Source: Candidatus Levyibacteriota bacterium (GTDB lineage Bacteria; Patescibacteriota; Microgenomatia; Levybacterales; UBA12049). Taken from it: 64,000 nucleotides of DNA. This document shows positions 9,663-59,211 of this stretch, piece after piece. Every line of letters starts with the position of its first letter. Position 1 is the first letter of the stretch. The notes below the pieces were generated by a model. That model searched no databases. It saw only the letters and a list, made by a program, of their open reading frames with translations, and was not told where the DNA came from. Where the stretch lies: the NCBI GenBank assembly GCA_052034235.1, contig JBPOIT010000012.1, positions 34,161-98,160 on the forward strand, in the 5' to 3' direction. The translations under genes and the position numbers were made by a program.

Positions 9663-9670
9663 TACTTATA

Positions 9671-10132
9671 TTAATGGATACTTTGCTCACGGGCAATTTG
9701 AAGAGAGCGTTTTTCCTCATCAGATAACTCATGATCAAGGCCCTTTCCTTTTTTAACCCGCTTTGCATACCATCTCGTTCCTGATCTTGAGTAGAGCGCT
9801 GTGATGACGACCCCGGTGTCTTGTGCATCTAAGAGCGCGAGTATAAAACTCTGATCCCCTCCAGTGTCTTTGAACGGATTAAACCGTAACAGACCGATCT
9901 TTTGGACGTGGAACTGTTGATGTTTTTCTATTGTATCACACCTGCTGATTAGTAGATCAATATCCTTTTTGGCAATCTGCAAACCTCTGGTCAAATTTGT
10001 CAGGACTTCTTCAAGTGTTTTTTTATTCGCTCCTTCGGTCAACATGTCGTAATGTCTCTTCATTCGGAAGAAATAGTAACTTAATGCTGCTAACCAAAGA
10101 GTAAGAATAATGATAATTATTGTTGTAAACAT
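9671..10132 (-). CDS. DUF4446 family protein
   Basis: An N-terminal TM segment and the motif 'RFNPFKDTGGDQSFILALLDAQDTGVVITALYSR' match the DUF4446 pattern. Confidence 0.55.
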   Translation of the reverse strand: MFTTIIIIILTLWLAALSYYFFRMKRHYDMLTEGANKKTLEEVLTNLTRGLQIAKKDIDLLISRCDTIEKHQQFHVQKIGLLRFNPFKDTGGDQSFILALLDAQDTGVVITALYSRSGTRWYAKRVKKGKGLDHELSDEEKRSLQIAREQSIH

Positions 10133-42527: not shown

Positions 42528-42557
42528 TTGACACCCGCATAAGAAATAGCTTATAAT
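42528..42557 (+). promoter_or_regulatory. Candidate sigma70-like promoter TTGACA-N18-TATAAT ending 5 nt before the purF ATG (leaderless-type start)
   Basis: The -35 TTGACA is at 42528-42533, the -10 TATAAT at 42552-42557 and the ATG at 42563, with no SD. Confidence 0.45.
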
Positions 42558-42562: not shown

Positions 42563-44689
42563 ATGAACTTCCATTACACGAAAGAGAAGTGCGGTGTAGT
42601 TGGAGTATGGACCATTGAAAAAGATGCTCCCTATCTAGCACGCCGCGGAATAATTTCCCTCCAACATCGCGGCCAAGAAGGCGCAGGACTCAGCGTGTTA
42701 ACCCCCCAAAAAGACATTGTTACCCATAAAGGCATGGGACTCATCCCTAACGTATTAACTGAAGAAGCAATGACTCAATTAGGATCAAGTAATTTTGCAA
42801 TTGCCCAAAATAGATACGGCACATCAGGAAGCGGCAATGTCAAAAATGCCCAGCCTATAGAGCGAAAGCATGGAGACCTACAAATGTCACTCGGACATAA
42901 CGGAAATATCCCAGATGACCTCCCACTCCTCCGCAAAAAAGCAGGCGACCACAGTAAACAAATCAGCGACACATCACTCATGGCAACACTCATTATGAAA
43001 GAACGCATGACCAGCGACAGTTGGGAAGAAGCGCTCGTTAAAGTTTTGCCAATGTTCAAAGGAGCGTTTTGCAATATCATTCTCACCAATGAACCATCTA
43101 TCTATGCAATGCGCGATCCTTTCGGCATTCGCCCATTATGTTTGGGCAAATTTGAAGACGGTTGGATAATAGCATCAGAATCTGTGTCTCTGGATTCAAC
43201 TGGAGCAGAATTTGTCAGAGATATTATGCCAGGTGAAATAATTAAAATCGATGCCAAGGGTAAGCTCACTTCATTCTTTTATGGAGAACCCAAAAAAGCG
43301 CAACATTGTATCTTCGAATACATTTATTTTGCCAGGCCTGACAGTTTCTTAAATGGAAGACGCGTTAGAGCGGGACGTGAAGAGTCGGGAAGACTGCTCG
43401 CAAAACGAATTCGCGAAAAAGGACTCAAACCAGATGTCGTTATTCCAACATTTGACTCCGGATATGCTGCTGCAAAAGGCTGTGCTGAAGAACTTGGTAT
43501 CCCAATGGTCGATGCAATCACAACAAGCCATTATGTTGGCAGAACCTTTATTCAACCGGGACAATCAAATCGCATCGCTGCGGTAAACGGCAAACACAAT
43601 ATCGTTCCTGATGAAGTGTATGGAAAAAAGATTGTAATTGTTGATGATTCAGCAGTCAGACTCACAACAAGTACACGACTTGCCAGAGGATTTCGTGAAG
43701 CAGGTGTTGCAGAAATATACATGGGCTTTGCCAGTCCTCCAGTTGTCGAACAATGTGATTTAGGGATTGATATGCGGACAAAAAAAGAGTTGCCGGCAGC
43801 CAAATTTATCAAAATGCCATTTGAAAAAATTGAAAAGAAAGTTGCAGAACACGTTGATGCAGACGCAGTCGTCTATCTTCCAATCGAAGAAACCGCTCAA
43901 GCATTTGGCGGTGTCAAAGAAGATTACTACTACTTCCCCTTCGGTGGACCTCATCCAATAAGAGGAATACAGCCAGTCTTTCCTAAAATGAAAAAGCAAC
44001 TCAGTGATAAACCAAAAATTGCAATCTTTATTTCAGGCAAAGGAACTTTTTTGCCAGATATCTTTGAATCAATTAAAAAAAGAGAAATGCATGCCGAGAT
44101 AGTAGATGTTATTTGTAATAAGCCCGATGCTCTTGGACTCGAAAAAGCTAAAAAGTATAACGCTCAAACGACCGTACTTCCCTATGTTAATAAATTTAAA
44201 GATAAAACATTACGAGAGACTTACGATAAAAACCTGATAGCACATCTTAAAAAAGTTAAACCTGATATCATACTCTTATCTGGCTGGCAAATGATTTTAA
44301 GTGAAGCATTTTTGAATGCAGCTCAAGAAATGGAAATCCCTGTTATCAATCACCACCCAGGGCTTCTGACAAGTGATACTTCAGAAGAAGTCGCAACTTC
44401 CAGAGGAAGTATTCCTGTTCTTAGAGGTGGAAGTGTTTGGAAAGATGCTTTTGAAAAGAAACTTCCTGTTTCAGGTATTACCGTGCATCAAGTCTTACCT
44501 GGTGATGGATTTGATGTCGGACCAGTTATTCTTAAAGGAGAAGTACGGATAAAAAAGGATGATACGTTTGAAAGTTGGAGAAAAAAAATGGATGAAATAG
44601 AACATCTCCTCCTGCCTGCAGCACTCAAACGGGTACTGCATGTTATGAAATCAGGAATTGATACCAGTCATGGTAAATATCCCTGGTAG
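42563..44689 (+). CDS. purF: Amidophosphoribosyltransferase fused to a C-terminal GAR formyltransferase (PurF-PurN fusion)
   Basis: The N-terminus has a 9-aa propeptide then 'CGVVGVW' (Ntn Cys) and the PRTase motif 'IVIVDDSAVRLTTS'. The C-terminal ~230 aa, from about 44009, read 'KPKIAIFISGKG', 'VINHHPGLL' and 'GITVHQVLPGDGFDVGPVI' (PurN Asn/His/Asp triad). Confidence 0.85.
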   Translation: MNFHYTKEKCGVVGVWTIEKDAPYLARRGIISLQHRGQEGAGLSVLTPQKDIVTHKGMGLIPNVLTEEAMTQLGSSNFAIAQNRYGTSGSGNVKNAQPIERKHGDLQMSLGHNGNIPDDLPLLRKKAGDHSKQISDTSLMATLIMKERMTSDSWEEALVKVLPMFKGAFCNIILTNEPSIYAMRDPFGIRPLCLGKFEDGWIIASESVSLDSTGAEFVRDIMPGEIIKIDAKGKLTSFFYGEPKKAQHCIFEYIYFARPDSFLNGRRVRAGREESGRLLAKRIREKGLKPDVVIPTFDSGYAAAKGCAEELGIPMVDAITTSHYVGRTFIQPGQSNRIAAVNGKHNIVPDEVYGKKIVIVDDSAVRLTTSTRLARGFREAGVAEIYMGFASPPVVEQCDLGIDMRTKKELPAAKFIKMPFEKIEKKVAEHVDADAVVYLPIEETAQAFGGVKEDYYYFPFGGPHPIRGIQPVFPKMKKQLSDKPKIAIFISGKGTFLPDIFESIKKREMHAEIVDVICNKPDALGLEKAKKYNAQTTVLPYVNKFKDKTLRETYDKNLIAHLKKVKPDIILLSGWQMILSEAFLNAAQEMEIPVINHHPGLLTSDTSEEVATSRGSIPVLRGGSVWKDAFEKKLPVSGITVHQVLPGDGFDVGPVILKGEVRIKKDDTFESWRKKMDEIEHLLLPAALKRVLHVMKSGIDTSHGKYPW

Positions 44690-44706
44690 ATTATAAAATA
44701 GGTATT

Positions 44707-45981
44707 ATGGATAAAAAGAATGTGTTAATCATCGCATCTGGAGGCCGTGAACATGCTCTCGGCTGGAAACTTAAACAATCCGAAAAGGTGGGTAAGATTT
44801 ATTTCGCACCGGGAAATGCCGGCACCGCCAAAATTGGTATTAACACAGATATCGCAGCGCTTGATTTTGCCTCACAAATCGAATTTGCAAAAACTCACGA
44901 TATTGCACTCACCATTGCAGGCCCTGATGATATTTTGGCAGCTGGAGTTGTTGATGCATTTCAAAATGCCGGACTGAAAATTTTTGGTCCTTCAAAAGCT
45001 GCTGCACAAATTGAAGCATCAAAGGCATTTGCAAAAGACCTTATGCAAACAGAAGGTATCCCAACCGCAAAATACCAAACGTTTACTGATGCAGAAAAAG
45101 CAAAAGCATATATCAAAGAACAAGGAGCACCGATTGTTATTAAGGCAAGCGGCTTGGCACTTGGCAAAGGTGTTGTTGTAGCAATGACTCTTGAAGAAGC
45201 TGAGAAAGCAATTGAAGATGCAATGGTTACAAAAGTATTCGGAGATGCAGGATCTGAAGTTGTCATTGAAGAATTTCTACAGGGTCCTGAAGTTTCGATT
45301 CACGCCTTTTCAGACGGAGAAAACGTAGCACTCTACCCAGCTTCTCGTGATCATAAACCAATTTTCGAAGACAACAAAGGCCCCAACACAGGTGGCATGG
45401 GAACTATTGCTCCACTTCCTGAGATCTCCTCTGAGCAACTTGAAACTATAAAAAAGACAATTGTACTTCCGGCAATTGAAGGTATGAAGAAAAGAGGTAT
45501 ACCATTTGTTGGTACACTTTACCCCGGGCTTATGATGACAAAGGACGGTCCAAAAGTTATTGAATTTAATTGCAGATTTGGTGATCCAGAATTTGAATCA
45601 TACATGCGGCTTCTTAAAACAGATATCTATGACATTTTGGTCGCTTGTGTTGACGGAACACTTGCAGATCTTACGATTGAATGGCACGATCAATTCGCTT
45701 GCTGTATCATACTTGCATCAGCTGGCTATCCTGCTAGTTCACAAAAAGGTATTGCTATACAAGGACTCGAAACTGTATCTGGAGATGTTGTTGTTTTCCA
45801 TTTGGGAACCAAACAGGACGGCGAAAATATCGTCACAAATGGCGGGAGAGTTATTGGCGTAACCGCTGTTGGTAACACACTTGATGAAGCACTTGATAAA
45901 GCATATAGTGCAATTGGAGAGAACGGCATTCATTTTGAGGGAATGCAATATAGAAAAGATATAGGAAGGGTTACTGTATAA
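44707..45981 (+). CDS. purD: Phosphoribosylamine--glycine ligase
   Basis: 'VLIIASGGREHALGWKL' and 'FAPGNAG' in a 424-aa ATP-grasp protein. Confidence 0.9.
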   Translation: MDKKNVLIIASGGREHALGWKLKQSEKVGKIYFAPGNAGTAKIGINTDIAALDFASQIEFAKTHDIALTIAGPDDILAAGVVDAFQNAGLKIFGPSKAAAQIEASKAFAKDLMQTEGIPTAKYQTFTDAEKAKAYIKEQGAPIVIKASGLALGKGVVVAMTLEEAEKAIEDAMVTKVFGDAGSEVVIEEFLQGPEVSIHAFSDGENVALYPASRDHKPIFEDNKGPNTGGMGTIAPLPEISSEQLETIKKTIVLPAIEGMKKRGIPFVGTLYPGLMMTKDGPKVIEFNCRFGDPEFESYMRLLKTDIYDILVACVDGTLADLTIEWHDQFACCIILASAGYPASSQKGIAIQGLETVSGDVVVFHLGTKQDGENIVTNGGRVIGVTAVGNTLDEALDKAYSAIGENGIHFEGMQYRKDIGRVTV

Positions 45982-45982
45982 G

Positions 45983-48958
45983 ATGACGACACGGATAGAA
46001 ATTGGCGCAACTGTTTTTGATACGAGAGCTGCCGCGCGAGTTAAAAAGTTTCAATCACTCGGCTACAAACAGATCTCAACTCTTTGGATTTTCGATGTCT
46101 ATACTATCGATAAGAATTTTACTCAGACGCAACTTGAAGACATCGCTTCAAGACTTGCAAATCCTCTGACCCAAAACTTCGCCATTGTAAATGGTTCAAC
46201 AAAACCTGCCACAAAGAAATTCGCCTTTGCTATAGAAATTGGTTTTCTCCCGGGCGTTACCGATAATGTTGCCCATACAACAAAGGAGATAATTGAAGAC
46301 GGATTAAAAACAAAATTCGCCGAAACTGAAGGCGTCTACACTTCACAAGTCACATTTGTTGACGGCAAACTAACAGCCGAGGAGGCAGATCAAATTGCAG
46401 CATCACTTTATAATCCACTGATTCAAAGAGCTCATGTCAAAACATATGCTCAATTTATAAAAGACAACGGCATGGATGTTATTGTTCCACAGGTAAAACT
46501 TTCTGCAAAACCAAATATCTCTGATGTAAATCTGAATGTCTCAGATGAAGAACTTACTGTTATCGGTAAACAAGGAATAGCAAATGCAGATGGAACAAGA
46601 CGCGGACCACTCGCGCTTGACTTAACGTACATGAAAACCATTCAAGCATATTTCAAAAAGCTGGGACGAAATCCTACTGATATTGAAATTGAATCAATAG
46701 GCCAAACGTGGTCTGAGCATTGCAAACACACAATTTTTGCAGATCCACTTGATGAATTGAAAGACGGATTATTTAAGACATATATTAAAGGTGCTACTGA
46801 GTTGATACGAAAGAAAAAATCTGCCAAAGGCGGATCCGGTGATTTTTGTATTTCTGTTTTTACTGATAACTCAGGAGGTATTGCACTTGATGAGACATAC
46901 ATGGTGACACATAAAGTCGAAACACATAACAGTCCGTCAGCACTTGATCCATTTGGCGGTGCAATTACTGGTATCGTCGGCGTGAATCGTGACACCATCG
47001 GATTTGGAATGGGCGCAAAACCTGTTGCGAATTTTTACGGTTATTGCTTTGCAGATCCTCGAGTTGATATCCCGCTTTTTAGAGATCAAAAACTCACAAA
47101 TAAAATGCTCTCGTCGTCAAGAATTATGAACGGTGTTATTGATGGTGTGAATGCAGGAGGTAACCAATCAGGAATTCCAACGCCGTTGGGTTTTGTTTAT
47201 TTTGATGAACGTTATCGCGGGAAACCACTTGTCATTGTTGGAACAGTTGGACTCATACCACGAAAAATAAAAACAAAACTATCACATGTTAAAAAAGCGA
47301 AACCCGGTGATTTAATAGTTATAATCGGCGGACGTGTTGGAAAAGACGGCATCCATGGTGCAACGTTTTCATCAGAGGCGCTTGATAGTGGAAGTCCAGC
47401 AGCAGCGGTCCAAATCGGCGATCCGATTACACAGAAAAAATTAAGTGATGCAATCGTAAAAGAAGCGCGCGACATGCTTTTATATAACAGCATAACTGAT
47501 AATGGCGCCGGTGGACTTTCCTGCTCTGTCGCCGAAATGGCTAAAGAATCAGGTGGAGCAAAAGTCGAACTTGAAAAAGTACCACTGAAATATCCTGGAC
47601 TTGATCCTTGGGAAATTTGGGTTTCGGAATCACAAGAACGAATGACATTGGCAATACCAAAAACCAAATGGAAGAAGTTTTTAGAACTCATGACACGACG
47701 AGGAGTCGAAGCAACAGTTATTGGTGAATTTACAAAAACAGAAAAATGCGTTGTCACCTTTAACGGCAAAACAATTATGGATATGGATATGACATTTCTT
47801 CATGACGGTCTACCTGCTAAACAATTAACAACAACCTATGTCAAACCACTTTTTGAAGAGACATCTGTACCCGAAGAAAAATCATTAACAAACTCTCTGA
47901 GTGAAATGCTAAGCAGATTAAATATCACCAGTTTTGAATTTATATCACAACAATATGATCACATTGTCCAAGGGAATGCGGTTCTCGGGCCACTCCAGGG
48001 AAGAGGACGTGTGAATGCTGAAACAGCAGTTATTCGTCCAGTTCTTGATTCAAATAAAGGTGTTGTTCTGTCTCAAGCACTCTACCCTACGTACTCTGAA
48101 ATTGATCCATATAATATGTCTGCCAGTGCAATTGATAGTGCAATCAGACAGGCAGTTGCAGCAGGCGCTGACCCCGACAAACTGGCACTGCTTGATAACT
48201 TCTGCTGGTGCAGCAGCAACGATCCTGAAAGACTAGGCCAGTTAAAACTAGCTGTCAAAGCATGTTTCGATTATGCAGTTGCATACGGTACTCCATATAT
48301 TTCCGGCAAAGATAGTATGTTTAATGACTTTAAAGGGTATGATGAAAATGGAAAACCAATCGCTATTTCAATCCCGCCAACACTTCTTATTTCAAGTATT
48401 GGTGTTATACCCGACATTACAAAAGTCGTGTCACTCGATGCAAAAGTTCCTGGCGATTTAGTGTATATTCTCGGTGAAACATTTGAAGAACTCGCAGGGT
48501 CAGAATATTTCCAGTTGAAAAATGCGATAAGTAACGCAGTACCCAAAGTTGATCCGCGAAAAAATAAACTTATGTATGATGCATTTTATCAAGCAGTCCA
48601 AAAAAATCTCATCGCATCAAGTATCAGTATTGGACGGGGTGGTATTGCAACAGCTCTTGCCAAAAAAGCAATCGGCGGACAACTGGGACTTTCAGTAAGT
48701 CTACAAAATTTACCAGGACAAATAAGTCGTGATGATTTTGCACTCTATTCTGAAAGCCAAGGAAGAATACTTGTAACTATTGCAAAAGAAAAGAAAACCG
48801 CATTTGAAAAAGCTTTTGCTGGAATGAGTTTTCTACAGATTGGAAGTGTAACCAAAGAGCAACTAGTAGCTGTTAAAGGATTAGGTGGAATTGAAATAAT
48901 AAATCTCGATCTAAAAAAAGCAACTGATTCATATAGAAAAACATTTAAGGATTATTAA
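45983..48958 (+). CDS. purL: FGAM synthase large subunit with two N-terminal PurS-like modules (PurS-PurS-PurL fusion)
   Basis: 991 aa. Residues 1-80 and ~85-170 each look like PurS ('GATVFDTRAAARVKKFQSLGY...'). The remainder is the PurL AIRS/AIRS_C duplication ('GGAITGIVGVNRD', 'SGKDSMFN'). Confidence 0.85.
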   Translation: MTTRIEIGATVFDTRAAARVKKFQSLGYKQISTLWIFDVYTIDKNFTQTQLEDIASRLANPLTQNFAIVNGSTKPATKKFAFAIEIGFLPGVTDNVAHTTKEIIEDGLKTKFAETEGVYTSQVTFVDGKLTAEEADQIAASLYNPLIQRAHVKTYAQFIKDNGMDVIVPQVKLSAKPNISDVNLNVSDEELTVIGKQGIANADGTRRGPLALDLTYMKTIQAYFKKLGRNPTDIEIESIGQTWSEHCKHTIFADPLDELKDGLFKTYIKGATELIRKKKSAKGGSGDFCISVFTDNSGGIALDETYMVTHKVETHNSPSALDPFGGAITGIVGVNRDTIGFGMGAKPVANFYGYCFADPRVDIPLFRDQKLTNKMLSSSRIMNGVIDGVNAGGNQSGIPTPLGFVYFDERYRGKPLVIVGTVGLIPRKIKTKLSHVKKAKPGDLIVIIGGRVGKDGIHGATFSSEALDSGSPAAAVQIGDPITQKKLSDAIVKEARDMLLYNSITDNGAGGLSCSVAEMAKESGGAKVELEKVPLKYPGLDPWEIWVSESQERMTLAIPKTKWKKFLELMTRRGVEATVIGEFTKTEKCVVTFNGKTIMDMDMTFLHDGLPAKQLTTTYVKPLFEETSVPEEKSLTNSLSEMLSRLNITSFEFISQQYDHIVQGNAVLGPLQGRGRVNAETAVIRPVLDSNKGVVLSQALYPTYSEIDPYNMSASAIDSAIRQAVAAGADPDKLALLDNFCWCSSNDPERLGQLKLAVKACFDYAVAYGTPYISGKDSMFNDFKGYDENGKPIAISIPPTLLISSIGVIPDITKVVSLDAKVPGDLVYILGETFEELAGSEYFQLKNAISNAVPKVDPRKNKLMYDAFYQAVQKNLIASSISIGRGGIATALAKKAIGGQLGLSVSLQNLPGQISRDDFALYSESQGRILVTIAKEKKTAFEKAFAGMSFLQIGSVTKEQLVAVKGLGGIEIINLDLKKATDSYRKTFKDY

Positions 48959-48960
48959 GT

Positions 48961-49764
48961 ATGAAAATAAAACCAAAAGCACTTATATTTTCAGGATACG
49001 GATTAAATTCAGAAGAAGAAACAGCTTATGGATTTGAAATGGCTGGAGCAACTGCTGACATTGTACATATCAATGATGTCATCGACGGCACATACAAACT
49101 AAAAAATTATCAGATCCTTTCGTTTCCCGGTGGATTCGCATACGGTGATGATACTGGTTCAGGAAATGCGTATGCCAATAAAATAAAAAATCATCTTTGG
49201 GAAGAAGTTAAAACGTTTATAGAAAGAGACACATTGGTAATCGGTATCTGTAACGGTTGCCAGATTGTTAATAATTTAGGCCTCGTTCCGGCATTTGAAA
49301 AACAGTATGGAGAGCGTCAGGTTGCCTTGCAGCATAATGAATCAGCTCGTCTTGTGTGCAGATGGATTGACATGAAAGTAACAGCCAAAACACCATGGCT
49401 TACCGGTATTGAAACACTTTCGCTACCAATTGCTCATGGAGAAGGAAAATTCTATACCTCCACAGAAAACTTAAAAAAACTTCATGCTAATAAACAAATT
49501 GCACTTCAGTATGTCACAGGTCCTATGAGTACTTATCTGGATTTACCTGCAAATCCTAACGGTGCAATTGATGATATCGCTGGTATAATTGATGAGACTG
49601 GTAAAATATTAGGACTTATGCCGCATCCAGAACGAGGCATGTTCTTTAGTCAAATGCCAAATTGGCCGGTACAAAAAGAAGAACTCTTAAGACAGAATAA
49701 AAAACTGCCAAAAGAGGGACCGGGTTTGCAACTGCTTAAGAATGCTGTACAATACTTTAGCTGA
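48961..49764 (+). CDS. purQ: FGAM synthase glutamine amidotransferase subunit
   Basis: 'ALIFSGYGLNSEEE', the catalytic 'GICNGCQ' and 'HPER' in a 267-aa protein. Confidence 0.9.
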   Translation: MKIKPKALIFSGYGLNSEEETAYGFEMAGATADIVHINDVIDGTYKLKNYQILSFPGGFAYGDDTGSGNAYANKIKNHLWEEVKTFIERDTLVIGICNGCQIVNNLGLVPAFEKQYGERQVALQHNESARLVCRWIDMKVTAKTPWLTGIETLSLPIAHGEGKFYTSTENLKKLHANKQIALQYVTGPMSTYLDLPANPNGAIDDIAGIIDETGKILGLMPHPERGMFFSQMPNWPVQKEELLRQNKKLPKEGPGLQLLKNAVQYFS

Positions 49765-49766
49765 AT

Positions 49767-50792
49767 ATGAATAATAAAAAGTATACAATCGCAACACTTG
49801 GAAGTCATTCATCTTTGCAAATATTAAAAGGCGCTAAAGATGAAGGTTTTCAAACGCTTATTATTTCAACACCTGAAACTGAAGCATTTTATAAAACATT
49901 TCCGTTTATTGATGAACATATAATTATTCCAAAATTTTCAGAATTTTCAACGATTGAAAAAACACTCATTGAAAAAAATGTGATTGTTATCCCCCATGGT
50001 TCGTTTGTTGCATACCTCGGCTCAGAAAAAAATAAAACAATGAAAGCTATGTATTTCGGAAATAAAAGTGTTCTTGATTGGGAAGAAGACAGACAAAAGC
50101 AACGAGAATGGTTAACAGAAGCAAAGATAAATGTGCCGGAGCAGTTTGACTTAAGCGATGAAAAGAAAAGACCAATTCAATATCCAATTATTGTTAAGTC
50201 ATATGGAGCAGCTGGTGGCAAAGGATATTTCTACGCCAGAGACCGAAAAGACTTCGACGCAAAAATGGAAACGTTTGGAAAGAAAAAATATGTTATTCAG
50301 GAATACATAATCGGCGTTCCACTGTATGTCCATTTCTTTTATTCACCACTTACTGACAAACTTGAAATTATGAGTATGGATAAAAGGTACGAAACAAACG
50401 TCGACTCACTTGGTAGAATTCCACTTGAAGGACAAAAAGGACTTGTTATCGAACCTTCATATGTCGTTGTTGGTAACAGTAGTCTTGTTCTCCGTGAAGG
50501 GATGCTGACAGAAGCTTACAATATGGGCAGACGAGTAATCGATGCCTCAAAAAAACTTATCGACAAACGCGGCATGTTCGGCCCATTCTGCGTGGAAACA
50601 ATCATCACACCAGACCAGCGATTCTATGTCATGGAAATTTCCTGTAGAATTGTTGCAGGAACCAATCTCTTTACCTATGGATCTCCCTATTCATGGCTCT
50701 ATTATGATGAACCAATGAGTACAGGACGAAGAATCGCCAGAGAAATAAAAAATGCTATTGCTGATAATACCCTGCCCCAAGTATTAGACTGA
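49767..50792 (+). CDS. purP: 5-formaminoimidazole-4-carboxamide ribonucleotide (FAICAR) synthetase, archaeal-type formate-dependent PurP
   Basis: 'IATLGSHSSLQILKGAKDEGF', 'HGSFVAYLG', 'YFGN', 'HFFYSPL', 'MDKRYETN' and 'MGRRVIDASKKL...MFGPFCVE' closely track the M. jannaschii PurP family (DUF1246/DUF1297). Confidence 0.85.
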   Translation: MNNKKYTIATLGSHSSLQILKGAKDEGFQTLIISTPETEAFYKTFPFIDEHIIIPKFSEFSTIEKTLIEKNVIVIPHGSFVAYLGSEKNKTMKAMYFGNKSVLDWEEDRQKQREWLTEAKINVPEQFDLSDEKKRPIQYPIIVKSYGAAGGKGYFYARDRKDFDAKMETFGKKKYVIQEYIIGVPLYVHFFYSPLTDKLEIMSMDKRYETNVDSLGRIPLEGQKGLVIEPSYVVVGNSSLVLREGMLTEAYNMGRRVIDASKKLIDKRGMFGPFCVETIITPDQRFYVMEISCRIVAGTNLFTYGSPYSWLYYDEPMSTGRRIAREIKNAIADNTLPQVLD

Positions 50793-50793
50793 C

Positions 50794-52341
50794 ATGACAA
50801 ATAGTAAAACAACACATAAAACATCATACGCACTCATCAGTGTTTTTGACAAAGCAGGAATTCTCGACTTAGCAAAAACATTTGTAGAGAAGAATATTAA
50901 AATAATTTCAACCGGTGGTACTGCTAAATACCTTAAAGAAAATAACATTGACATAATCCCCATTGAAGATATAACCAAAATGCCTGAGAGTTTTGATGGA
51001 AGAATGAAGACAATCAGTTTTGAAATCGCATCAGGAATACTCTATGACAGACACAACACGTCGCATCAAGAACAAGCAGAAAAATTACAAACTCCTCACA
51101 TCGATTATATCGTTTGCAATTTTTATGATTTCTGGAAAAAACCAGGGATTGAAATGATTGATGTCGGCGGCCCAACAATGGTTCGTGCAGCTGCAAAAAA
51201 TTATCAAAGCGTCACAGTGCTGGTAAACCCTGACGACTACAGTGTCGTTATAGAAGAAATTAAAACCAAAGGACAACCAAGTGAAGAACTTCGTAAAGTA
51301 CTCGCAGGAACAGCTTTTTCCTACGTTGCAGAATATGACGCACTGATTGCAAATTATTTTCAAAAAGACGTCGATAGTGCAGATTGGTTCATTTCACTGC
51401 GAAACGGTAAGCGCCTGCGTTACGGAGAAAATCCTCATCAACAGGGCGAATTTTTTAAAGATCTTGAAGATACAGATGCGCTCGGACTTGGCAATTATGA
51501 AATGCTCCAGGGAAAAGAAATTTCATACAGCAATTATCTCGATTTAGACGGCGGTCTTCAGGCACTTTCCTGTATCGGACAAGAAAAACCAGCATGTGTT
51601 ATCTTAAAACACACCAACCCATGCGGCGCTGCACTTGGGAAAGATTTGAAAGACGCATTTCATAAAGCATGGTTTGAAGGAGATCCACTTGCTGCATTTG
51701 GTGGCATCATTTTCTTTAACAGACCTGTTGATGGAAAACTTGCAGAATATATGTTGGCTGATCGAAAGTTTTTTGAAATCATCGCCGCACCTGAATTTAC
51801 AAAAGAAGCACGAGATTTATTTAAAATAAAACCCAATTTGCGTCTTCTAGAAAACAAAGCACTGAGTAAACCTCAATTAGAGCCATATAGAGAAATTAAA
51901 AGAGTTCGGGGAGGATTTCTTGTACAAGACACTGATGTCAAAGTTCTTGATAAAAAAGCATTAAATGTTGTGACAAAGAAAAAACCAACCTCATCACAAA
52001 TTGAAGATATGCTTTTTGCCTGGGAAATCTCACGGGTTAGTAAATCAAATTGTGTGGTTGCTGTAAAAGACGGAGTGCTTCTCGCATCGGGAGTTGGACA
52101 ACAAGATAGAAAGCGCTGTTGTGAATTATGTGTTAGTAAAGCCCTTAAACCATTAACTGGAGCTGTCGCAGCAACCGACGGCTTTTTTCCTTTCAGAGAT
52201 GGACCTGATGTCTTGATCAAAGCGGGAGTGACTGCCATAATTCAACCAGGCGGCTCAATTAGAGATCAGGAAACAATTGACGCCTGTAACGAAGCAGGAA
52301 TAACCATGATCATGACAGGTGTCAGAGCATTTAAACATTAA
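50794..52341 (+). CDS. purH: Bifunctional AICAR transformylase / IMP cyclohydrolase
   Basis: 515 aa. The MGS-like N-terminus is 'ALISVFDKAGILDLAKTFVEKNIKIISTGGTAKYL' and the AICARFT domain carries 'VVAVKDGVLLASGVGQQDR'. Confidence 0.85.
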   Translation: MTNSKTTHKTSYALISVFDKAGILDLAKTFVEKNIKIISTGGTAKYLKENNIDIIPIEDITKMPESFDGRMKTISFEIASGILYDRHNTSHQEQAEKLQTPHIDYIVCNFYDFWKKPGIEMIDVGGPTMVRAAAKNYQSVTVLVNPDDYSVVIEEIKTKGQPSEELRKVLAGTAFSYVAEYDALIANYFQKDVDSADWFISLRNGKRLRYGENPHQQGEFFKDLEDTDALGLGNYEMLQGKEISYSNYLDLDGGLQALSCIGQEKPACVILKHTNPCGAALGKDLKDAFHKAWFEGDPLAAFGGIIFFNRPVDGKLAEYMLADRKFFEIIAAPEFTKEARDLFKIKPNLRLLENKALSKPQLEPYREIKRVRGGFLVQDTDVKVLDKKALNVVTKKKPTSSQIEDMLFAWEISRVSKSNCVVAVKDGVLLASGVGQQDRKRCCELCVSKALKPLTGAVAATDGFFPFRDGPDVLIKAGVTAIIQPGGSIRDQETIDACNEAGITMIMTGVRAFKH

Positions 52342-53432
52342 TGGATACAAAGCAAATTACCATAGCAACACTCGGAAGTCATTCAGCACTTGAGGTATGT
52401 CGAGGGGCAAAGGATGAAGGATTTAAAAATGTCGTTGTCTGCCAAAAAGGTCGTGAGGCAACTTATGCCAAATATTACAAAACAAACGGCTCAACAGGTT
52501 GTGTTGATGATGTCATCCTCGTTGATTCATTTAAAGATGTCTTAAAACCGGAAATCCAAAAACAGCTCATCGACCGCAACAGTATATTTATCCCCAATAG
52601 ATCTTTTGAAGTGTATATCAATGACTACAACGCAATTGAAAATGATTTTAAAGTCAAAATGTACGGCAATAAAAAAATTCTTCGAATTGAAGAACGAGGT
52701 TTCAAACCAAACCAATATGATCTTTTAGATGCAGCACGCATTCGTTATCCAAAACAATTTTCAGATCCAAAAGACATTGATTGTGTCTGTCTTGTAAAAG
52801 TGCTTGAACAAGAAAGAGGATTTGAAAGAGCATTTTTTATCGTTGATAGTTTTGAAGATTTCAAAAAACAAACTGATGAAAAAATCAGTAAAGGTATTTT
52901 CACTGAGGAACAATTAGGTAAAGCAGTTATAGAAGAATTCATCGTTGGTGTTCAAGTTAATTTTAATTATTACTATTCCCCGATTCATGATCGTTTGGAA
53001 CTGCTTGGAACTGATACCAGACGACAAACAAATTTTGAAGGCATAACCAAACTTCCTGTTGTGTATCAGGAAGAAGTACTCAAAAAAATGTCAATCAAAT
53101 ATGAAGAAGCAAGTCATACAGCTGTGACAGTTCTTGAATCACTGCTTGAACCGGTTTTTGAAATCGGTGAACGATTTGTAAAAGCATCAAAAGAACTTTC
53201 CTCACCTGGCGTCATCGGTCCATTTGCACTGCAATCATTTATCATCCCCGGTCCTCCAAAAAAAGATATCGTCGTCATCGATGTCTCGCCTCGCTATCCA
53301 GGATCTCCAGGCATTACGGCAACACCTTACAGCGGTTATCTTTTTGGAAAGTCGGTCAATGTCGGAAAGCGCATTGCTATGGAAATCAAAGAAGCAGTAG
53401 AATTAAAGAGACTTGATGAAATAATTTCATAA
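52341..53432 (+). CDS. Second, more divergent PurP-family ATP-grasp paralogue
   Basis: The N-terminus 'ITIATLGSHSALEVCRGAKDEGF' and C-terminus 'IGPFALQSFI', 'GKRIAMEIKEA' mark the PurP family. The middle is more divergent than in the 49767 copy. Confidence 0.75.
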   Translation: MDTKQITIATLGSHSALEVCRGAKDEGFKNVVVCQKGREATYAKYYKTNGSTGCVDDVILVDSFKDVLKPEIQKQLIDRNSIFIPNRSFEVYINDYNAIENDFKVKMYGNKKILRIEERGFKPNQYDLLDAARIRYPKQFSDPKDIDCVCLVKVLEQERGFERAFFIVDSFEDFKKQTDEKISKGIFTEEQLGKAVIEEFIVGVQVNFNYYYSPIHDRLELLGTDTRRQTNFEGITKLPVVYQEEVLKKMSIKYEEASHTAVTVLESLLEPVFEIGERFVKASKELSSPGVIGPFALQSFIIPGPPKKDIVVIDVSPRYPGSPGITATPYSGYLFGKSVNVGKRIAMEIKEAVELKRLDEIIS

Positions 53433-53433
53433 T

Positions 53434-54828
53434 ATGAGTGACCAAAAATTACCTTTTTCAGAACTAACAGCAATCTCGCCACTTGATGGACGTTATCGGT
53501 CACGTGTTGAAGAACTCGCACCCGTTGTCTCGGAATATGCCCTCATCAAATTTCGCATGGAAATCGAAATTACATATTTACTCGCACTATCTGAAGCAGA
53601 GGTGACACGACCATTTACTGATGATGAAAAACAATTGCTCCAAACAATTCTTAACGACACTAGTTTTGAAAGTATTGAAAAAGTAAAAGAAACAGAGAAC
53701 CAAACACGACATGACGTTAAAGCAATGGAGAGAACGCTTCGTTCATTACTTGAAAACACCTCACTTAAAGATCAAATTGAAATGATTCATATCGGACTCA
53801 CATCCGAGGATATTAATAATATCGCTTATCGATTGATACTCACACGCGGAACAGCTGTTGTTTTACATACCCTTGAAGAACTGATTGATGAGTTGGTAAC
53901 TCGTTCAAAAGAGTTCCGCTCAGTTCCCATGCTTGCCCGAACGCATGGACAACCAGCAGTCCCAACAACAGTCGGGAAAGAACTTTCAACCTTTGCAATT
54001 CGTCTTAATAGACAAGTGAGAAAATTACAAAAGCAAAAACTAACAGGAAAGTTAAACGGTGCGGTTGGTAGTTTTAATGCCTTACAATATGTCTTCCCTA
54101 AAACAGACTGGCCAGCATTTTCTGAAAAGTTTATTTCATCGTTTGGACTAACTCCAAATCTTTTTACAACACAAATAAATCAATATGATGATGTTATCGA
54201 GTATCTACAAATCATCCATAGAATTAACGGCATACTGATCGATTTTAATCAGGACATGTGGAGATATATCAGTGATGAATGGTTTGTCCAGGTTGCGAAA
54301 AAAGGAGAAGTCGGATCATCAACAATGCCGCAAAAAGTTAATCCAATTGATTTTGAAAATGCTGAAGGAAACTTGGGAATTGCTAATGGCATTATCGAAT
54401 CAATGTCCAGAAAACTGGTTATTTCAAGACTGCAAAGAGATTTATCAGACAGTACAACCATTAGAAACTACGGATCAATTCTTGCGTATGGGCTCGTAGG
54501 ATATAAAAGTATTCTAACCGGACTTGGACGAGTAAATCCAAATGTTGAAAAAATCTCACAGGAATTAAACAAAGAATGGGCCATTTTAGGTGAAGGTGTT
54601 CAAACACTTTTACGAAAAGTAGGAGTTGAAGATCCATATTCACTCATTTCATCTTTAACACGTGGTGAGAAAGTTGATGCAAAGCAGTGGACAGAGTGGG
54701 TTAAAAATCTTCCGGTTGCTGATGAAACAAAAACAATCTTACAAAATCTGACGCCCGAAACATATATCGGTTTGGCTCCAGAACTTACTGATAAAGCACT
54801 TGCAGAGATTGAAGAATCGAGAAAATAA
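53434..54828 (+). CDS. purB: Adenylosuccinate lyase
   Basis: It has the fumarate-lyase signature 'GSSTMPQKVNPIDFENAEGN' and is 464 aa. Confidence 0.9.
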   Translation: MSDQKLPFSELTAISPLDGRYRSRVEELAPVVSEYALIKFRMEIEITYLLALSEAEVTRPFTDDEKQLLQTILNDTSFESIEKVKETENQTRHDVKAMERTLRSLLENTSLKDQIEMIHIGLTSEDINNIAYRLILTRGTAVVLHTLEELIDELVTRSKEFRSVPMLARTHGQPAVPTTVGKELSTFAIRLNRQVRKLQKQKLTGKLNGAVGSFNALQYVFPKTDWPAFSEKFISSFGLTPNLFTTQINQYDDVIEYLQIIHRINGILIDFNQDMWRYISDEWFVQVAKKGEVGSSTMPQKVNPIDFENAEGNLGIANGIIESMSRKLVISRLQRDLSDSTTIRNYGSILAYGLVGYKSILTGLGRVNPNVEKISQELNKEWAILGEGVQTLLRKVGVEDPYSLISSLTRGEKVDAKQWTEWVKNLPVADETKTILQNLTPETYIGLAPELTDKALAEIEESRK

Positions 54829-55959
54829 GTGATGAAAAATCGAATTGGCATTGTTGGCGGTGGACAATTAGGAATAATGTTAACAGATGCTGCAAAAAAA
54901 TTAGGTTTTTCTGTCACCGTCATCGACCCCACTCCAAATAGCCCAGCAGGACAAGTTGCAGATCAACAAATCACAGCGCATTTTACTGATGAAAATGCAA
55001 TTAGAAAACTTGGCGAAGAATCTGACTTTTTAACATTTGAAATTGAGCTGGCCAACGCAAAAATCCTTGATGAACTTTCAGAACAAGGTTTGCAAATAAA
55101 TCCCTCTGCAAAAACATTAACGCTTATTAAAGATAAATTGGAACAAAAGAAATTTCTCCGCAAAAACGGAATTCCTGTTACTGATTTTGTAGGAGTCGAA
55201 ACCATAGATGACATAATTATTGCCGGACGTGAATTTGGCTATCCGTTTTTACTTAAAGCGCGTTTTGACGCATACGACGGAAGGGGCAATGCGCTCGTAA
55301 AAGAAGAAGCTCAAATTCAAGATGCATTTAATGGATTAGGAGGTAAATATTTATACGTAGAAAAATTTGTACCATTCATGAAAGAATTGGCTATAAATGT
55401 CGCTCGTAACAATAAAAATGAAATACTTTCTTATCCAGTTGTAGAAACCGTCCACAAAAATAATATCTGTCATATTGTTACAGCACCTGCACCCGTAAAT
55501 GATCTTGTAAAAGAACAAGCTAAAAAGTTTGGCGAAGAAACAATGAAACACCTGGGGGGTGCAGGGGTATTTGGAATTGAAATGTTTTTAACGGAAGAAG
55601 GAAATGTACTACTAAACGAAATCGCACCACGTGTTCATAATTCAGGACATTACACAATTGAAGCATGTCAAACATCACAATTTGAACAACATATACGCGC
55701 AGTAACCGGCATGCCCCTCGGATCAACTGAAATGATTGTTCCGGCAGCGGTGATGATCAATATTCTCGGCGAACGAAATGGAAAAGCAGAACCAAAAGGT
55801 ATTCAAGAAGCAGAAGCTATCACTGGTGTGAAAGTGCATATCTATGGTAAAATGGAAACACGAATTGAACGTAAAATGGGTCATCTGACAGCAGTCGCTG
55901 ATACTGTGGAAGAAGCAATGCAAAACGCTAAAAAAGCACGAGATCTAATAACTATATGA
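54829..55959 (+). CDS. purK: N5-carboxyaminoimidazole ribonucleotide synthase (ATP-grasp)
   Basis: '[29 protein letters not shown]' plus the ATP-grasp core. It is upstream of, and overlaps by 4 nt, purE. Confidence 0.8.
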
Positions 55960-56480
55960 GCAAAATTATTGTAGGAATTATCATGGGATCAGATAGCGAT
56001 TTGCCTGTTATGCAGGATGCAGCGACGATGCTTACAGAATTTGGCATCACGTCCGAAGTTACAATCGTTTCTGCACATAGAACACCAGATAGAATGTATG
56101 AATATGCAAAAGATGCAGAAGCACGCGGAATGAAAGTAATCATTGCAGGAGCTGGCGGTTCAGCACATTTACCAGGAATGGTTGCGTCCCTTACTTCCCT
56201 TCCCGTCATCGGCGTCCCGATCAAAACAAAATCACTTGACGGACTTGATTCATTACTCTCAATAGTCCAAATGCCCCCCGGAATTCCCGTTGCAACTGTT
56301 GCCGTAAACGGCGCAAAAAATGCAGGCCTACTTGCTGCAAGAATTATTGGTCTTTCACATGAAGAAATCTCAGACAAAGTAAAAGTCTATCAAAAAGAAT
56401 TAGAAACGTCAGTTCTAGAGAAAGTCGATAAACTTGCAGATAATGGTTTTAAAAACTATCTCCTAGAGATGAAGAAATAA
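55956..56480 (+). CDS. purE: N5-CAIR mutase
   Basis: '[16 protein letters not shown]', '[17 protein letters not shown]' and 'PVIGVPI' in a 174-aa protein. Confidence 0.9.
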
Positions 56481-56482
56481 TT

Positions 56483-57457
56483 ATGATTAGATCGCAGACA
56501 ATCCTTTCCGCACTGCCTCACGTACTTAAAACTATCGACCTACCAAACCTCGGAAAAAAATATCAGGGAAAAGTTCGTGATTTTTATTTATCTGGTGATA
56601 AACGGGTCACAATTACAACAGATAGACAATCTGCATTTGATCTCGTCCTTGGACACATTCCGTTTAAAGGAGCAGTACTTAATCAATTAGCTGCATTTTG
56701 GTTTGAAAAAACCAAACATATTGTTCCCAATCATGTCATCAGTGTCCCTGACCCAAATGTCCTTGTTTCCAAACAATGTAAAAACTTTCCAATAGAAATA
56801 GTCGTTCGGGGATACCTCACCGGGGTTGCCAATACATCAATTTGGTATTCATACGAAAAAGGTGAACGAACAATTTATGGTATGGAATTTCCGGATGGAA
56901 TGCATAAAAATCAAAAATTACCAATACCAATTATCACACCAACAACACATCCAGAAGCAGGCAGTGATAAACATGATGAACGGTTAACTCGGGATGAAAT
57001 TATCAATCAAAAAATTGTTGACCCAAAACTCTACGAGCGGGCTGAACAGGCGGCTTTGAAATTATTTGATTTCGGCAGTAAATGGTGTCTCAAACACGGA
57101 CTGATTCTTGTTGATACAAAATATGAATTTGGATTATATAACGGAGAACTAACACTTATTGATGAAATCCATACACCTGACAGTTCTCGCTTTTGGATTG
57201 CAGATACGTACGAGAAAAGAATCGCCAAAGGTTTGGAGCCAGAAAATTATGACAAGGAGTTTATTAGACTGTGGTACACAAAACGTGTAAATCCGTACAA
57301 AGATAAAATTCCCCCAATGACTGAAGATCTCATCGTACAAGTTGCTAAACGTTATATTGGCGCATATGAAAAACTCACTGAGAAAAAATTCAAACCGTTT
57401 CAGTATCCAATTGAAACCCGCATCAAACAAAACCTCAAAAAAGCTGCTATCATATAA
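56483..57457 (+). CDS. purC: SAICAR synthetase (long, eukaryote/yeast-like form)
   Basis: 324 aa carrying 'YQGKVRDFY', 'TTDRQSAFD' and 'ILVDTKYEFG'. Confidence 0.85.
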   Translation: MIRSQTILSALPHVLKTIDLPNLGKKYQGKVRDFYLSGDKRVTITTDRQSAFDLVLGHIPFKGAVLNQLAAFWFEKTKHIVPNHVISVPDPNVLVSKQCKNFPIEIVVRGYLTGVANTSIWYSYEKGERTIYGMEFPDGMHKNQKLPIPIITPTTHPEAGSDKHDERLTRDEIINQKIVDPKLYERAEQAALKLFDFGSKWCLKHGLILVDTKYEFGLYNGELTLIDEIHTPDSSRFWIADTYEKRIAKGLEPENYDKEFIRLWYTKRVNPYKDKIPPMTEDLIVQVAKRYIGAYEKLTEKKFKPFQYPIETRIKQNLKKAAII

Positions 57458-57462
57458 TTCTT

Positions 57463-58314
57463 ATGCTACTCCCCGCTTGGCTTCTTTTTGCGATTTTACA
57501 AGGTTTGACATCAAACGCATTTAATTTTTTCAGCAGGTATATCCTCAGAGGAAATGATGACGGGACTGCTTTTGCATGGCTTATGCAACTTATCCGTTTT
57601 ACCTTTTTTATTGTCTATGCAATACTTTTTGATTGGAGACTCGTTATCAGTTTTGAATCGATAGCAACCCTTCTCGTACTCGGCATTACCGAAACAATTG
57701 GCATATATTTCTATATGAAAATGCATACCCATAGCGAACTTTCAATCTCGACCATTCTCTCACGAACAAGAATGCTTTGGGTTCCGCTTTTTGCATTTTT
57801 GATAATTGGTGAGATTCTCAAACCAATTGAATATCTTGGCATTGCAATTCTTTTTATAGGAGTTTCAATAGTGAGTTCTCCGAAGAAAATGTTCGTTGAT
57901 AAAGGAGCACTCTATGCAAATGCATCATCTGTTGTTATAGCTCTTAATATTGTCATTTATAAGCTTTCAATGTCTTATGCTTCGGATCCAATAATACTTG
58001 CAGCTCTTGGTTTTCCGTCAATATTTATTCTTCCATTTTTTATGAGAAATGCGAGAAAAAGAATTGCTATAAATATCAAAGCAAGTCTGGGAATAAAACT
58101 TTTGGCAATCGGTTTTAATATTATTTCAATGTTCTTTTTTGCACTCGCCATGCAAACAGGAGAAGCAAGTAAAGTAAACGCCGTCTATCAGGGGATGCTT
58201 GTGTTCGCGGTCGTTGCAGGAATTGTATTTCTTAATGAACGAAAAGACATTCCGAAGAAAATTATCGGTACAGCGGTAACTGTTATAGGAGTTGTTTTGT
58301 TAAGCTTATATTAA
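57463..58314 (+). CDS. DMT-superfamily (EamA-like) 10-TM transporter, paralogue 1
   Basis: 283 aa and polytopic, about 40% identical to the adjacent gene ('NAFNFFSRYILRGNDDGTAFAWL' vs 'NAFNFFTRFVLKGDDDPIAYAWL'). Confidence 0.65.
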   Translation: MLLPAWLLFAILQGLTSNAFNFFSRYILRGNDDGTAFAWLMQLIRFTFFIVYAILFDWRLVISFESIATLLVLGITETIGIYFYMKMHTHSELSISTILSRTRMLWVPLFAFLIIGEILKPIEYLGIAILFIGVSIVSSPKKMFVDKGALYANASSVVIALNIVIYKLSMSYASDPIILAALGFPSIFILPFFMRNARKRIAINIKASLGIKLLAIGFNIISMFFFALAMQTGEASKVNAVYQGMLVFAVVAGIVFLNERKDIPKKIIGTAVTVIGVVLLSLY

Positions 58315-58316
58315 CT

Positions 58317-59168
58317 ATGTTTATCTTTACTTCTTGGTTCATTTTGGCGGCACTTGCAGGCTTTGCGTCAAACGCGTTTAACTTCTTTACACGTTTTGTT
58401 CTCAAGGGCGATGATGACCCAATAGCTTATGCTTGGCTATATGAAACAGTAAGATTTTTTGTTTTTGCAGTGCTCGCAATTTTTGATTATCGGCTTATTA
58501 TTACACCTCAATCAATTTTCTTTTTACTCGGTATTGGCGTTGCTGAATGGATTTCTATGTATTTTTACATGAAGATGCATTCATATACGCACTTGTCCAT
58601 TTCAACTATTGTTTCGAGGACACGGTTGATTTGGGTGGCAATTCTCGCAATTGTTATTGTTGGAGAAAGTCTCATAATGCATGAGTTTTTGGGAATTATT
58701 ATTATCTTTTTGGGACTCAGTATTGTTGTCTCACCAAAAAAACTTACCACAGATAAAGGATTAATTTATGCAAATCTTGCAGCATTTTTAATTGCCATTG
58801 ATATTATTTTTATCAAATTAGCTCTCCCCTATGCATCAAATTCAGTCATCAATGCTGCGATGTCACTTCCAGGTATGCTTTTGTTTCCTCTTTTTATGAA
58901 ACATCCTGTCAAACGAATTGCGCCCACATTAAAACGTAATTTTCGAATTAAAATGGTGGCAATTGGTTTTAATTGTCTAAGTGTGTTCCTGTTTGCACTT
59001 GCCATACGACTTGGAGACACAAGTAAAGTAACAGCAATTTATCAAAGCATGATGGTCGTATCAGTTATCACTGGTATCATTTTTCTTAACGAGCGAAAAG
59101 ACATTGGGAAAAAACTTATCGGCACTGTCGTCACACTTTTCGGTGTAGTACTCTTAACTGTACTCTAA
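58317..59168 (+). CDS. DMT-superfamily (EamA-like) transporter, paralogue 2 (tandem duplicate)
   Basis: See paralogue 1; it has the same length (283 aa) and a 2-nt intergenic gap. Confidence 0.65.
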   Translation: MFIFTSWFILAALAGFASNAFNFFTRFVLKGDDDPIAYAWLYETVRFFVFAVLAIFDYRLIITPQSIFFLLGIGVAEWISMYFYMKMHSYTHLSISTIVSRTRLIWVAILAIVIVGESLIMHEFLGIIIIFLGLSIVVSPKKLTTDKGLIYANLAAFLIAIDIIFIKLALPYASNSVINAAMSLPGMLLFPLFMKHPVKRIAPTLKRNFRIKMVAIGFNCLSVFLFALAIRLGDTSKVTAIYQSMMVVSVITGIIFLNERKDIGKKLIGTVVTLFGVVLLTVL

Positions 59169-59211
59169 TAGCTAAAAATGCTATAATATAAGCTAGTTTA
59201 GACACGCTGTT

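Follow-up and report, generated by a model that had tools for sequence, protein, structure and literature searches.

PurP-like proteins of archaea have been divided into three groups, namely Ia or PurP I (MJ0136), Ib or PurP II (PF1517), and II or PurP III (PF0421) (PMC3261824; PMC6486802). MJ0136 is the sole PurP with demonstrated synthetase activity (EC 6.3.4.23) for FAICAR (5-formamidoimidazole-4-carboxamide ribonucleotide), and no activity was detected for PF1517 and PF0421, each assayed alone (PMC3261824; PMC6486802). PF1517 binds ATP and 5-aminoimidazole-4-carboxamide ribonucleotide (AICAR), yet is inactive (PMC6486802). Proteins of Ib and II are always found in the same archaeal genomes, and a heterohexamer of PurP II and PurP III has been proposed (PMC3261824; PMC6486802). 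Asn258 and a (K/R)GG(K/R)G P-loop mark cluster I, a glycine-poor loop two residues longer and His258 mark cluster II, and the formyl-contacting His27 and Arg314 are 100% conserved in both clusters (PMC3261824). None of 1,266 complete bacterial genomes had PurP, which was present across four archaeal phyla in a distribution consistent with duplication in an archaeal ancestor (PMC6486802). Surveys of 2011, 2014 and 2019 treat PurP as archaea-only (2011, PMC3261824; 2019, PMC6486802). The present report concerns two PurP-family genes, here called P1 and P2, and the purH gene between them, on a 64,000-nucleotide stretch (the window) of contig JBPOIT010000012.1 from the Candidatus Levyibacteriota assembly GCA_052034235.1.

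An initial annotation of this DNA, made from its letters alone, had described a full-length purH bracketed by two PurP paralogues. The trio was borne out by coordinates and by Pfam and NCBIfam scores, the three open reading frames (ORFs) being consecutive on the + strand where they had been placed (Table 1). P1 is assigned to cluster Ib and P2 to cluster II on account of their residue signatures, their positions in a tree and their identities. What is new is the host: a complete Ib+II pair stands in bacterial pur operons of Levybacteria, Roizmanbacteria, Daviesbacteria, other Patescibacteria and at least two further bacterial lineages, and no report of such a pair in bacteria was found in the literature searched. 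Given this bacterial setting, PurP can no longer count as a signature of archaea. It is considered fairly probable that P1 and P2 are an archaeal Ib+II module in the pur operon of a candidate phyla radiation (CPR) bacterium, predicted to make FAICAR jointly, with PurH closing the ring to inosine monophosphate (IMP).

Both proteins were recognized as PurP family members by Pfam. P1 matched DUF1297 at 2.5e-65 (220 bits) and DUF1246 at 4.3e-42 (143 bits), and P2 matched the same domains at 1e-57 (195 bits) and 7.4e-42 (143 bits), with gathering cut-offs of 23.8 bits for DUF1297 and 25 bits for DUF1246. The PDB matches of P1 and P2 were PurP structures only, and the best match of P1 was PF1517 (2r84) at 1.4e-99, with MJ0136 at 1e-81. 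The best NCBIfam equivalog score of P1 was 379 bits against a cut-off of 580 and that of P2 was 289 bits against 556, and both proteins fell far short of all such cut-offs. The initial annotation had named PurT and PurK as families to which the two might belong instead; Pfam, NCBIfam and the PDB place both in the PurP family, the purK match of P1 being marginal (29 bits, cut-off 318) and P2 showing no such match. The true PurK is a separate gene (Table 1). For residue-level comparison, MJ0136 and PF1517 were rebuilt from PDB alignments with their numbering and aligned with P1, P2, their relatives and 63 full-length family representatives; residue roles in MJ0136 numbering are second-hand, as given in PMC3261824 and PMC6486802. 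The alignment with MJ0136 and PF1517, which the initial annotation had recommended, shows the family-invariant ATP-grasp and substrate-contact residues to be kept in both paralogues. All 14 near-invariant family positions (His27, Gly40, Tyr55, Gly114, Glu122, Pro140, Lys156, Glu200, Gly204, Arg228, Glu265, Gly289, Gly292, and Arg314) are retained in P1 and in P2. Twelve positions discriminate the clusters, being at least 80% conserved inside each and different between them; at every one of the 12, P1 agrees with cluster I and P2 with cluster II. These substitutions include ligand-contact position 258, and several adjoin contact residues (93, 310, and 316–319). In MJ0136 numbering, P1 carries HGS at 92–94, Asn258, Glu310, Arg314 and a VAGTN type at 315–320, and P2 carries NRS, His258, Asp310, Arg314 and a PGSPG type at the same positions.

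P1 is 52% identical to PF1517, 43% to MJ0136 and 31% to P2. It had been called close to the archaeal PurP consensus, and this description has to be given up: P1 is a cluster Ib protein beside PF1517, in a subclade other than that of MJ0136, and with scores short of all equivalog cut-offs it is neither a member of cluster Ia nor an orthologue of MJ0136. Its P-loop, which aligns with GARGGRG of MJ0136, has Ala in place of the first basic residue of (K/R)GG(K/R)G and retains GG-K-G. The same Ala is found in archaeal cluster I representatives, e.g., the Nitrosocosmicus-type P0290. The position of MJ0136 Ser266 is occupied by Ser, Ala or Gly among CPR P1 proteins (Gly in the window) and, to judge from the alignment, is unusually free in this clade. 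In public annotation, proteins of the P1 type are named formate--phosphoribosylaminoimidazolecarboxamide ligase, and those of the P2 type only DUF1297 protein.

P2 shares 47% identity with cluster II proteins from a Bathyarchaeota metagenome-assembled genome (MAG) and from the archaeal locus L012, and 41% with MJ0136. In place of the P-loop it has an extended glycine-poor loop (Table 1), in which VKVLEQERGFERAFFI stands opposite VKFPGARGGRGYFI of MJ0136 and is longer by 2 residues. The loop contains ERAFF, and the motif ER(A/G)FF is kept in nearly all cluster II representatives, archaeal and bacterial. In addition, Leu is found at the MJ0136 Arg264 position in every CPR P2 examined. The divergent central region attributed to P2 in the initial annotation is therefore real, and it is a cluster II signature (12 of 12 positions) rather than a peculiarity of this genome. 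The divergent center of P2 is an ancient family-wide signature and no local innovation; nor is it decay, as archaeal and bacterial cluster II proteins have the ER(A/G)FF motif in common. Relaxed selection or pseudogenization of P2 was also considered and rejected on the basis of its conservation in relatives and its complete set of invariant residues.

Table 1. Coordinates of the PurP pair, purH and associated features in the window.
Feature	Position	Strand	Evidence or remark
YhhQ-family transporter, RibD_C/DHFR-like reductase and CofE-like ligase genes	38607-40542		co-directional, just upstream of prfB
Sigma-70 consensus (TTGACA-18-TATAAT, 12/12)	42528-42557		ends 5 nt before purF-purN ATG at 42563
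Surrounding pur operon	42563..60321	+	14 genes, family-profile matches; largest gap 43 nt
PurF-PurN fusion, one 708-aa ORF	42563-44689
PurN-like domain (folate-dependent glycinamide ribonucleotide formyltransferase) of PurF-PurN fusion	43997..44689	+	TIGR00639 117.6 bits, cut-off 150
PurL with PurS-like N-terminal extension, 991 aa	45983-48958		residues 3-69 match PurS-type model
P1, PurP-family ATP-grasp protein, cluster Ib (PurP II, PF1517 type), 341 aa	49767..50792	+	Pfam, PDB matches, tree
P1 glycine-rich P-loop GAAGGKG, aa 147-153	50205..50225	+	aligns with MJ0136 GARGGRG; cluster I length
P1 Asn237 (MJ0136 Asn258), cluster I hallmark	50475..50477	+	alignment; AICAR carboxamide contact per PMC3261824
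P1 VLREG, aa 241-245, with Gly at MJ0136 Ser266 position	50487-50501
P1/purH junction	50790-50796		GAC-TGA-C-ATG; 1-nt spacer, no overlap
purH, 515 aa, bifunctional: N-terminal IMP cyclohydrolase, C-terminal folate-dependent AICAR formyltransferase	50794..52341	+	NF002049, Pfam
purH/P2 junction	52339-52343		TAATG; true 1-nt overlap
P2, PurP-family protein, cluster II (PurP III), 363 aa	52341..53432	+	Pfam, discriminating residues, tree
P2 extended glycine-poor loop LEQERGFERAFF, aa 155-166	52803..52838	+	in P-loop place; 2 residues longer
P2 His259 (MJ0136 position 258), His being cluster II hallmark	53115..53117	+	alignment; PMC3261824
PurK (true, separate gene)	54829-55959		NCBIfam 438 bits
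Two tandem EamA/DMT-family transporter genes	57463-59168		between purC and purM

The purH product scored 570 bits on NCBIfam NF002049 (cut-off 402) and matched the Pfam families MGS and AICARFT_IMPCHas. Its motifs GRMKT, CNFY, IDVGG..AAKN and KHTNPCG, which are taken here to be the catalytic motifs of ATIC/PurH, align with the PurH structures of Mycobacterium tuberculosis and Campylobacter jejuni. Among relatives, the AICAR formyltransferase (AICARFT) half is 70–75% conserved and the IMP cyclohydrolase (IMPCH) half 63–71%. By these measures PurH is intact and its AICARFT half not relaxed; relaxed selection or pseudogenization of this domain was ruled out by a conservation at least equal to that of the IMPCH half. 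In close relatives, P1 and P2 are 73–79% identical to those of the window, as compared with 67–73% for purH and 47–61% for the PurN domain. At distant CPR loci, P1 and P2 are still 60–67% identical, and purD, purL, purQ and purH fall to 33–63%. P1 and P2 are the best-conserved genes of the operon, a pattern of strong purifying selection, and judged by conservation the PurP pair does not look dispensable, nor does the folate-dependent activity.

The PurP family comprises about 612 clusters (E <= 0.001; representatives at 50% identity) among 1.84 billion. Among the best 120 matches of each paralogue, identities were 66–100%, and the named ones were all labelled bacterial, mostly as CPR taxa; many matches agreed between the two lists in the length of their longest contig. 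The Ib+II pair occurs in hundreds of CPR relatives and in a small number of other bacteria. For the related loci compared here (L001 to L017), most representatives carry no taxon name, and the domain of origin was inferred from gene context. Cluster II and cluster Ib genes occur together in the window and at every locus covering both (L001–L009, L010, L012, L013, and L015–L017), and at the bacterial loci with both PurP genes covered (n = 12) all pairs are in pur context. The order P1-purH-P2 is found in the window, L001–L005, L008, L009 and L017, and the order P1-P2-purH in L006 and L015 (Daviesbacteria). In L016, P1-P2 directly follows purQ and precedes purB, and the 19 kb read contain no purH. 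In L007 (Bathyarchaeota) and L012 (archaeal context), a cluster II gene is followed by an adjacent cluster I gene. These orders suggest that purH came to lie between the two PurP genes by a rearrangement confined to the Levybacteria-type lineage, and that the arrangement is no design principle.

Several of these loci have further features of their own. L016, a groundwater CPR contig, carries purF, purN, purD, purL, purQ, P1, P2, purB, purE and purC, with the pair at 7915–10122; if purH is absent from the whole genome, the PurP pair must cover step 9, with some other cyclohydrolase. L010 (5332–9143), like L011, is a bacterial pur operon of 70% guanine-plus-cytosine (GC) content with a cluster I gene, a 383-residue ORF and a cluster II gene and with no purH in the locus; L010 also carries a bacterial single-chain GuaA. 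The 383-residue ORF was considered as the missing IMP cyclohydrolase and rejected: Pfam, NCBIfam and the PDB gave no match for it, and with its signal-peptide-like alanine-rich start it is probably secreted. An adjacent 154-residue ORF of L010, in the purS position, likewise had no family match. L013 (3484–11254), a bacterial contig, has both PurP types and, in the same 8 kb, a canonical purH scoring 707 bits on NF002049, with opposite-strand genes interspersed. L014, which has a bacterial SecY, has a cluster II gene only, on a 7-kb contig. In L001, an extra gene for a 214-residue protein of the histidine phosphatase superfamily (PF00300, 3e-41; 9360–10004) lies between purH and P2, where the window has none. 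A similar phosphatase gene in L004, L008 and L009 is inferred solely from a gap of about 640 nt between purH and P2.

A neighbor-joining tree (Kimura distances, 100 bootstraps) recovered cluster I at 100%, CPR P1 together with L006 and L010 at 99%, and CPR P2 at 100%. The CPR P1 clade joined PF1517 and P0311 at 68%. The L010 cluster I protein is 61% identical to the P1 of the window, and its grouping with the CPR clade is a hint of transfer between a high-GC bacterium and CPR. The L013 cluster II protein falls in the nearest sister group of CPR P2, with a bootstrap of only 50%. The named neighbors of the bacterial clades are archaeal, including Pyrococcus, Nitrosocosmicus, Heimdallarchaeota, Diapherotrites, Bathyarchaeota and Aenigmarchaeota. 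These archaeal neighbors, together with the reported absence of PurP from 1,266 bacterial genomes, favor an acquisition of the pair from archaea. Archaeal-to-bacterial transfer, for which a phylogeny had been suggested in the initial annotation, fits the archaeal identity of the named neighbors of both clades; direction and donor are where the tree falls short.

On the proposed mechanism, an ancestor of these CPR lineages would have gained the pair from archaea, once per paralogue and probably together. P1 and P2 would act jointly, most likely in a hetero-oligomer such as has been speculated on for archaeal PurP II/III, and would formylate AICAR to FAICAR with formate and ATP. The IMPCH half of PurH would then close the ring to give IMP, and the AICARFT half would be a parallel route dependent on 10-formyltetrahydrofolate (10-formyl-THF). 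In a folate-salvaging host, step 9 would on balance draw less on formyl-folate, and the pathway as a whole would not be folate-free. Joint action is suggested by the co-occurrence of the two genes, their adjacency or near-adjacency and tight spacing, their similar conservation, the inactivity of such proteins alone and the published heterohexamer speculation. The position of the pair in L016 also fits with its covering step 9. A more specific form of this mechanism, put forward tentatively and with rather less confidence, is an obligate P1:P2 hetero-oligomeric formate/ATP FAICAR synthetase, in which the Ib subunit would be catalytic and the ER(A/G)FF loop and His258 of the cluster II subunit would reshape or complete the active site. 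If so, the complex would pass FAICAR to the cyclohydrolase half of PurH. It would explain the inactivity of PF1517 and PF0421 alone and the role of archaeal Ib/II pairs, as well as how a folate-scavenging CPR bacterium spares formyl-folate.

Several points weigh against joint FAICAR synthesis by an acquired pair. Synthesis of FAICAR has never been demonstrated for any protein of Ib or II (PMC6486802). The intact PurH renders the PurP pair formally redundant. P2, with no glycine-rich ATP loop and with Leu at the Arg264 position, may perhaps be non-catalytic, and in P1 of the window Gly replaces Ser266, which contacts the AICAR phosphate. No formate source or formate-producing enzyme was found among the window ORFs of at least 150 residues. 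The deep nodes of the tree are weak (7–68%) and leave the donor lineage, as well as the direction of transfer, unproven.

Some of the same observations would be accounted for if PurH carried out steps 9 and 10 and the pair had another purine-linked role, whether with a different formyl donor or acceptor, in regulation or as a scaffold, or with P2 as a pseudo-enzyme modulating P1 or PurH. Each PurH domain is intact and subject to selection, FAICAR synthetase activity is on record for neither Ib nor II proteins (PMC6486802), and the 12 cluster-specific substitutions touch contact position 258 and neighbors of contact residues. Zhang et al., as cited in PMC6486802, have speculated on an alternative formyl source for PurP II and on a distinct function, or none, for PurP III. 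The pair is, however, the sole step 9 candidate in many archaea (PMC3261824; PMC6486802), it lies between purQ and purB in L016 with no purH in the 19 kb read, and its standing as the most conserved part of the operon is hard to square with an accessory role. An alternative role of this kind is thus regarded as unlikely, though it is the most serious of the competing explanations.

The folate context bears on the initial annotation, in which P1 and P2 were taken as two independent PurP enzymes, one canonical and one newly diverged, giving a fully folate-independent route to IMP beside PurH. The PurF-PurN fusion carries a PurN-like domain with PDB matches to PurN down to 5e-19 and with the N-H-H-P motif and the triad Asp aligned (Asn-x-His...Asp intact), an insertion of about 15 residues following directly after the catalytic N-H-H-P. 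The same fusion is found in L017, L015 has a purN-purD fusion, and the genes are separate in L016. No PurT, PurO, Fhs, FolD or pyruvate formate-lyase was found among the window ORFs of at least 150 residues. Since step 3 is of the PurN type and the window has no PurT, de novo purine synthesis as visible there would still need 10-formyl-THF at step 3. The proposal of IMP synthesis with or without 10-formyl-THF is not supported, the PurN triad being intact, and a folate-independent step 9 is at most what the PurP pair could give. Just upstream of prfB lie three co-directional genes coding for a YhhQ-family transporter (queuosine-precursor type), a protein with a RibD_C/DHFR-like reductase domain, and a CofE-like enzyme of the type 'putative folate metabolism gamma-glutamate ligase' (266 bits on TIGR04132, cut-off 350). 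They are presumably comparable to non-canonical folate salvage/polyglutamylation genes of intracellular bacteria, and the organism appears to salvage folate instead of making it. Such a cluster nearby would suit two independent enzymes, as would the presence in the operon of two real PurP family genes that both keep His27 and Arg314. Three findings go the other way: the divergence of P2 is an ancient cluster II signature common to archaea, P1 is of the Ib type, inactive alone in vitro (PMC3261824), and 10-formyl-THF, as far as the window shows, is still required at step 3. Two independent enzymes are therefore held to be improbable.

Marginally less probable still is that the pair is ancestral in bacteria, by pre-LUCA (last universal common ancestor) or early bacterial inheritance, or that it moved from bacteria to archaea. 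The bacterial clades are deep and monophyletic (99–100%), with weakly supported attachment points, and further bacterial lineages with pairs have been listed as L010 (70% GC), L013 and L014, of which L014 has the cluster II gene only. Such an origin sits poorly with the reported absence of PurP from 1,266 bacterial genomes and its presence in four archaeal phyla (PMC6486802), with the position of the bacterial clades inside archaeal diversity in both clusters of the neighbor-joining tree, and with a whole family of only about 612 representatives at 50% identity. Mis-assembly or mis-binning of archaeal genes into a bacterial contig, to which some clearly mislabelled MAG records ('Gammaproteobacteria', 'Limnocylindrales', and 'Methylomirabilota') lend some color, is effectively refuted by the joining of the genes to bacterial pur genes on one strand by gaps of 1–2 nt or a 1-nt overlap, by the even GC content of the region (0.37–0.40) and by recurrence of the arrangement in at least 10 independent assemblies, one of them a closed 1.14-Mb chromosome.

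The operon reads purF-purN fusion, purD, purS-purL fusion, purQ, P1, purH, P2, purB, purK, purE, purC, two EamA transporters and purM. Of the two stop/start overlaps reported for the trio, that of purH with P2 is confirmed at a single nucleotide, and that of P1 with purH proved to be a 1-nt spacer (Table 1). The release factor 2 gene prfB, a bacterial marker, lies directly upstream of the operon, and the host is therefore a bacterium. The closest genomes (P2 identity 75–79%) are labelled Candidatus Levybacteria or Levyibacteriota, the closed chromosome being among them, and more distant named homologues come from Roizmanbacteria, Daviesbacteria, Microgenomates and 'Patescibacteria group'. Several further records, plainly discordant in their labels, have this operon too. 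All this makes the host a CPR bacterium of the Microgenomates/Levybacteria type, one with a complete de novo purine operon. A perfect sigma-70 consensus precedes purF-purN and, if used, would make the operon mRNA leaderless or nearly so. Promoter-like and terminator-like sites inside the operon were no more numerous than in shuffled sequence, and Rfam and tRNA scans of the window gave no match, with no riboswitch upstream of the operon. In addition to the PurF-PurN and PurS-PurL proteins of the window, a purD-purL fusion of 1409 residues is found in the relative L017 (3970–8199), and gene fusions seem frequent in CPR pur operons of this kind. The tandem EamA/DMT-family transporter genes have a single counterpart in the pur operons of L004, L005 and L017 and none in L001–L003. 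That their substrate is purine-, folate- or formate-related is only a guess.

The biochemical role of the Ib and II proteins has been open since 2008, and the archaeal gene pair already known now has a bacterial example. For co-expression and complementation, a low-GC, presumably mesophilic bacterial operon that has purH alongside the two genes may prove more convenient than the archaeal pairs. The window also documents a CPR lineage with a complete, compact and strongly conserved de novo purine operon; nucleotide synthesis was missing in metabolic reconstructions of other Patescibacteria (PMC11809585).

Among known systems, the archaeal Ib+II pairs (PF1517 and PF0421 of Pyrococcus furiosus, and those of Sulfolobales and Pyrobaculum) share with P1 and P2 the hallmark residues, strict co-occurrence and linkage to pur genes. 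The window differs from them in its CPR host, in an otherwise bacterial pur operon and in the placement of purH between the two genes, and also in Leu264 of CPR P2, Ala at the first P-loop position of CPR P1 and Gly266 of its own P1. MJ0136 (PDB 2r7k) shares His27, Lys156, Glu200 and Arg314 with both proteins and Asn258, Glu310 and the loop length with P1; it differs in being single-copy, in working alone and in pairing with PurO, and neither window protein groups with it. Methanosarcinales, which have a full-length purH, two purP-like genes and purN, present the same coexistence and the same step 9 question (PMC3261824). They are archaea using both folates and archaeal analogues. In the window all three genes are consecutive in one operon. 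The Archaeoglobus type, with a PurP pair and a stand-alone PurH2, likewise couples the pair with a PurH-type cyclohydrolase and not with PurO. Its division of labor is the one proposed here for P1/P2 and the N-terminal half of PurH, with the difference that the cyclohydrolase of the window has kept its fusion to an AICARFT domain that appears functional.

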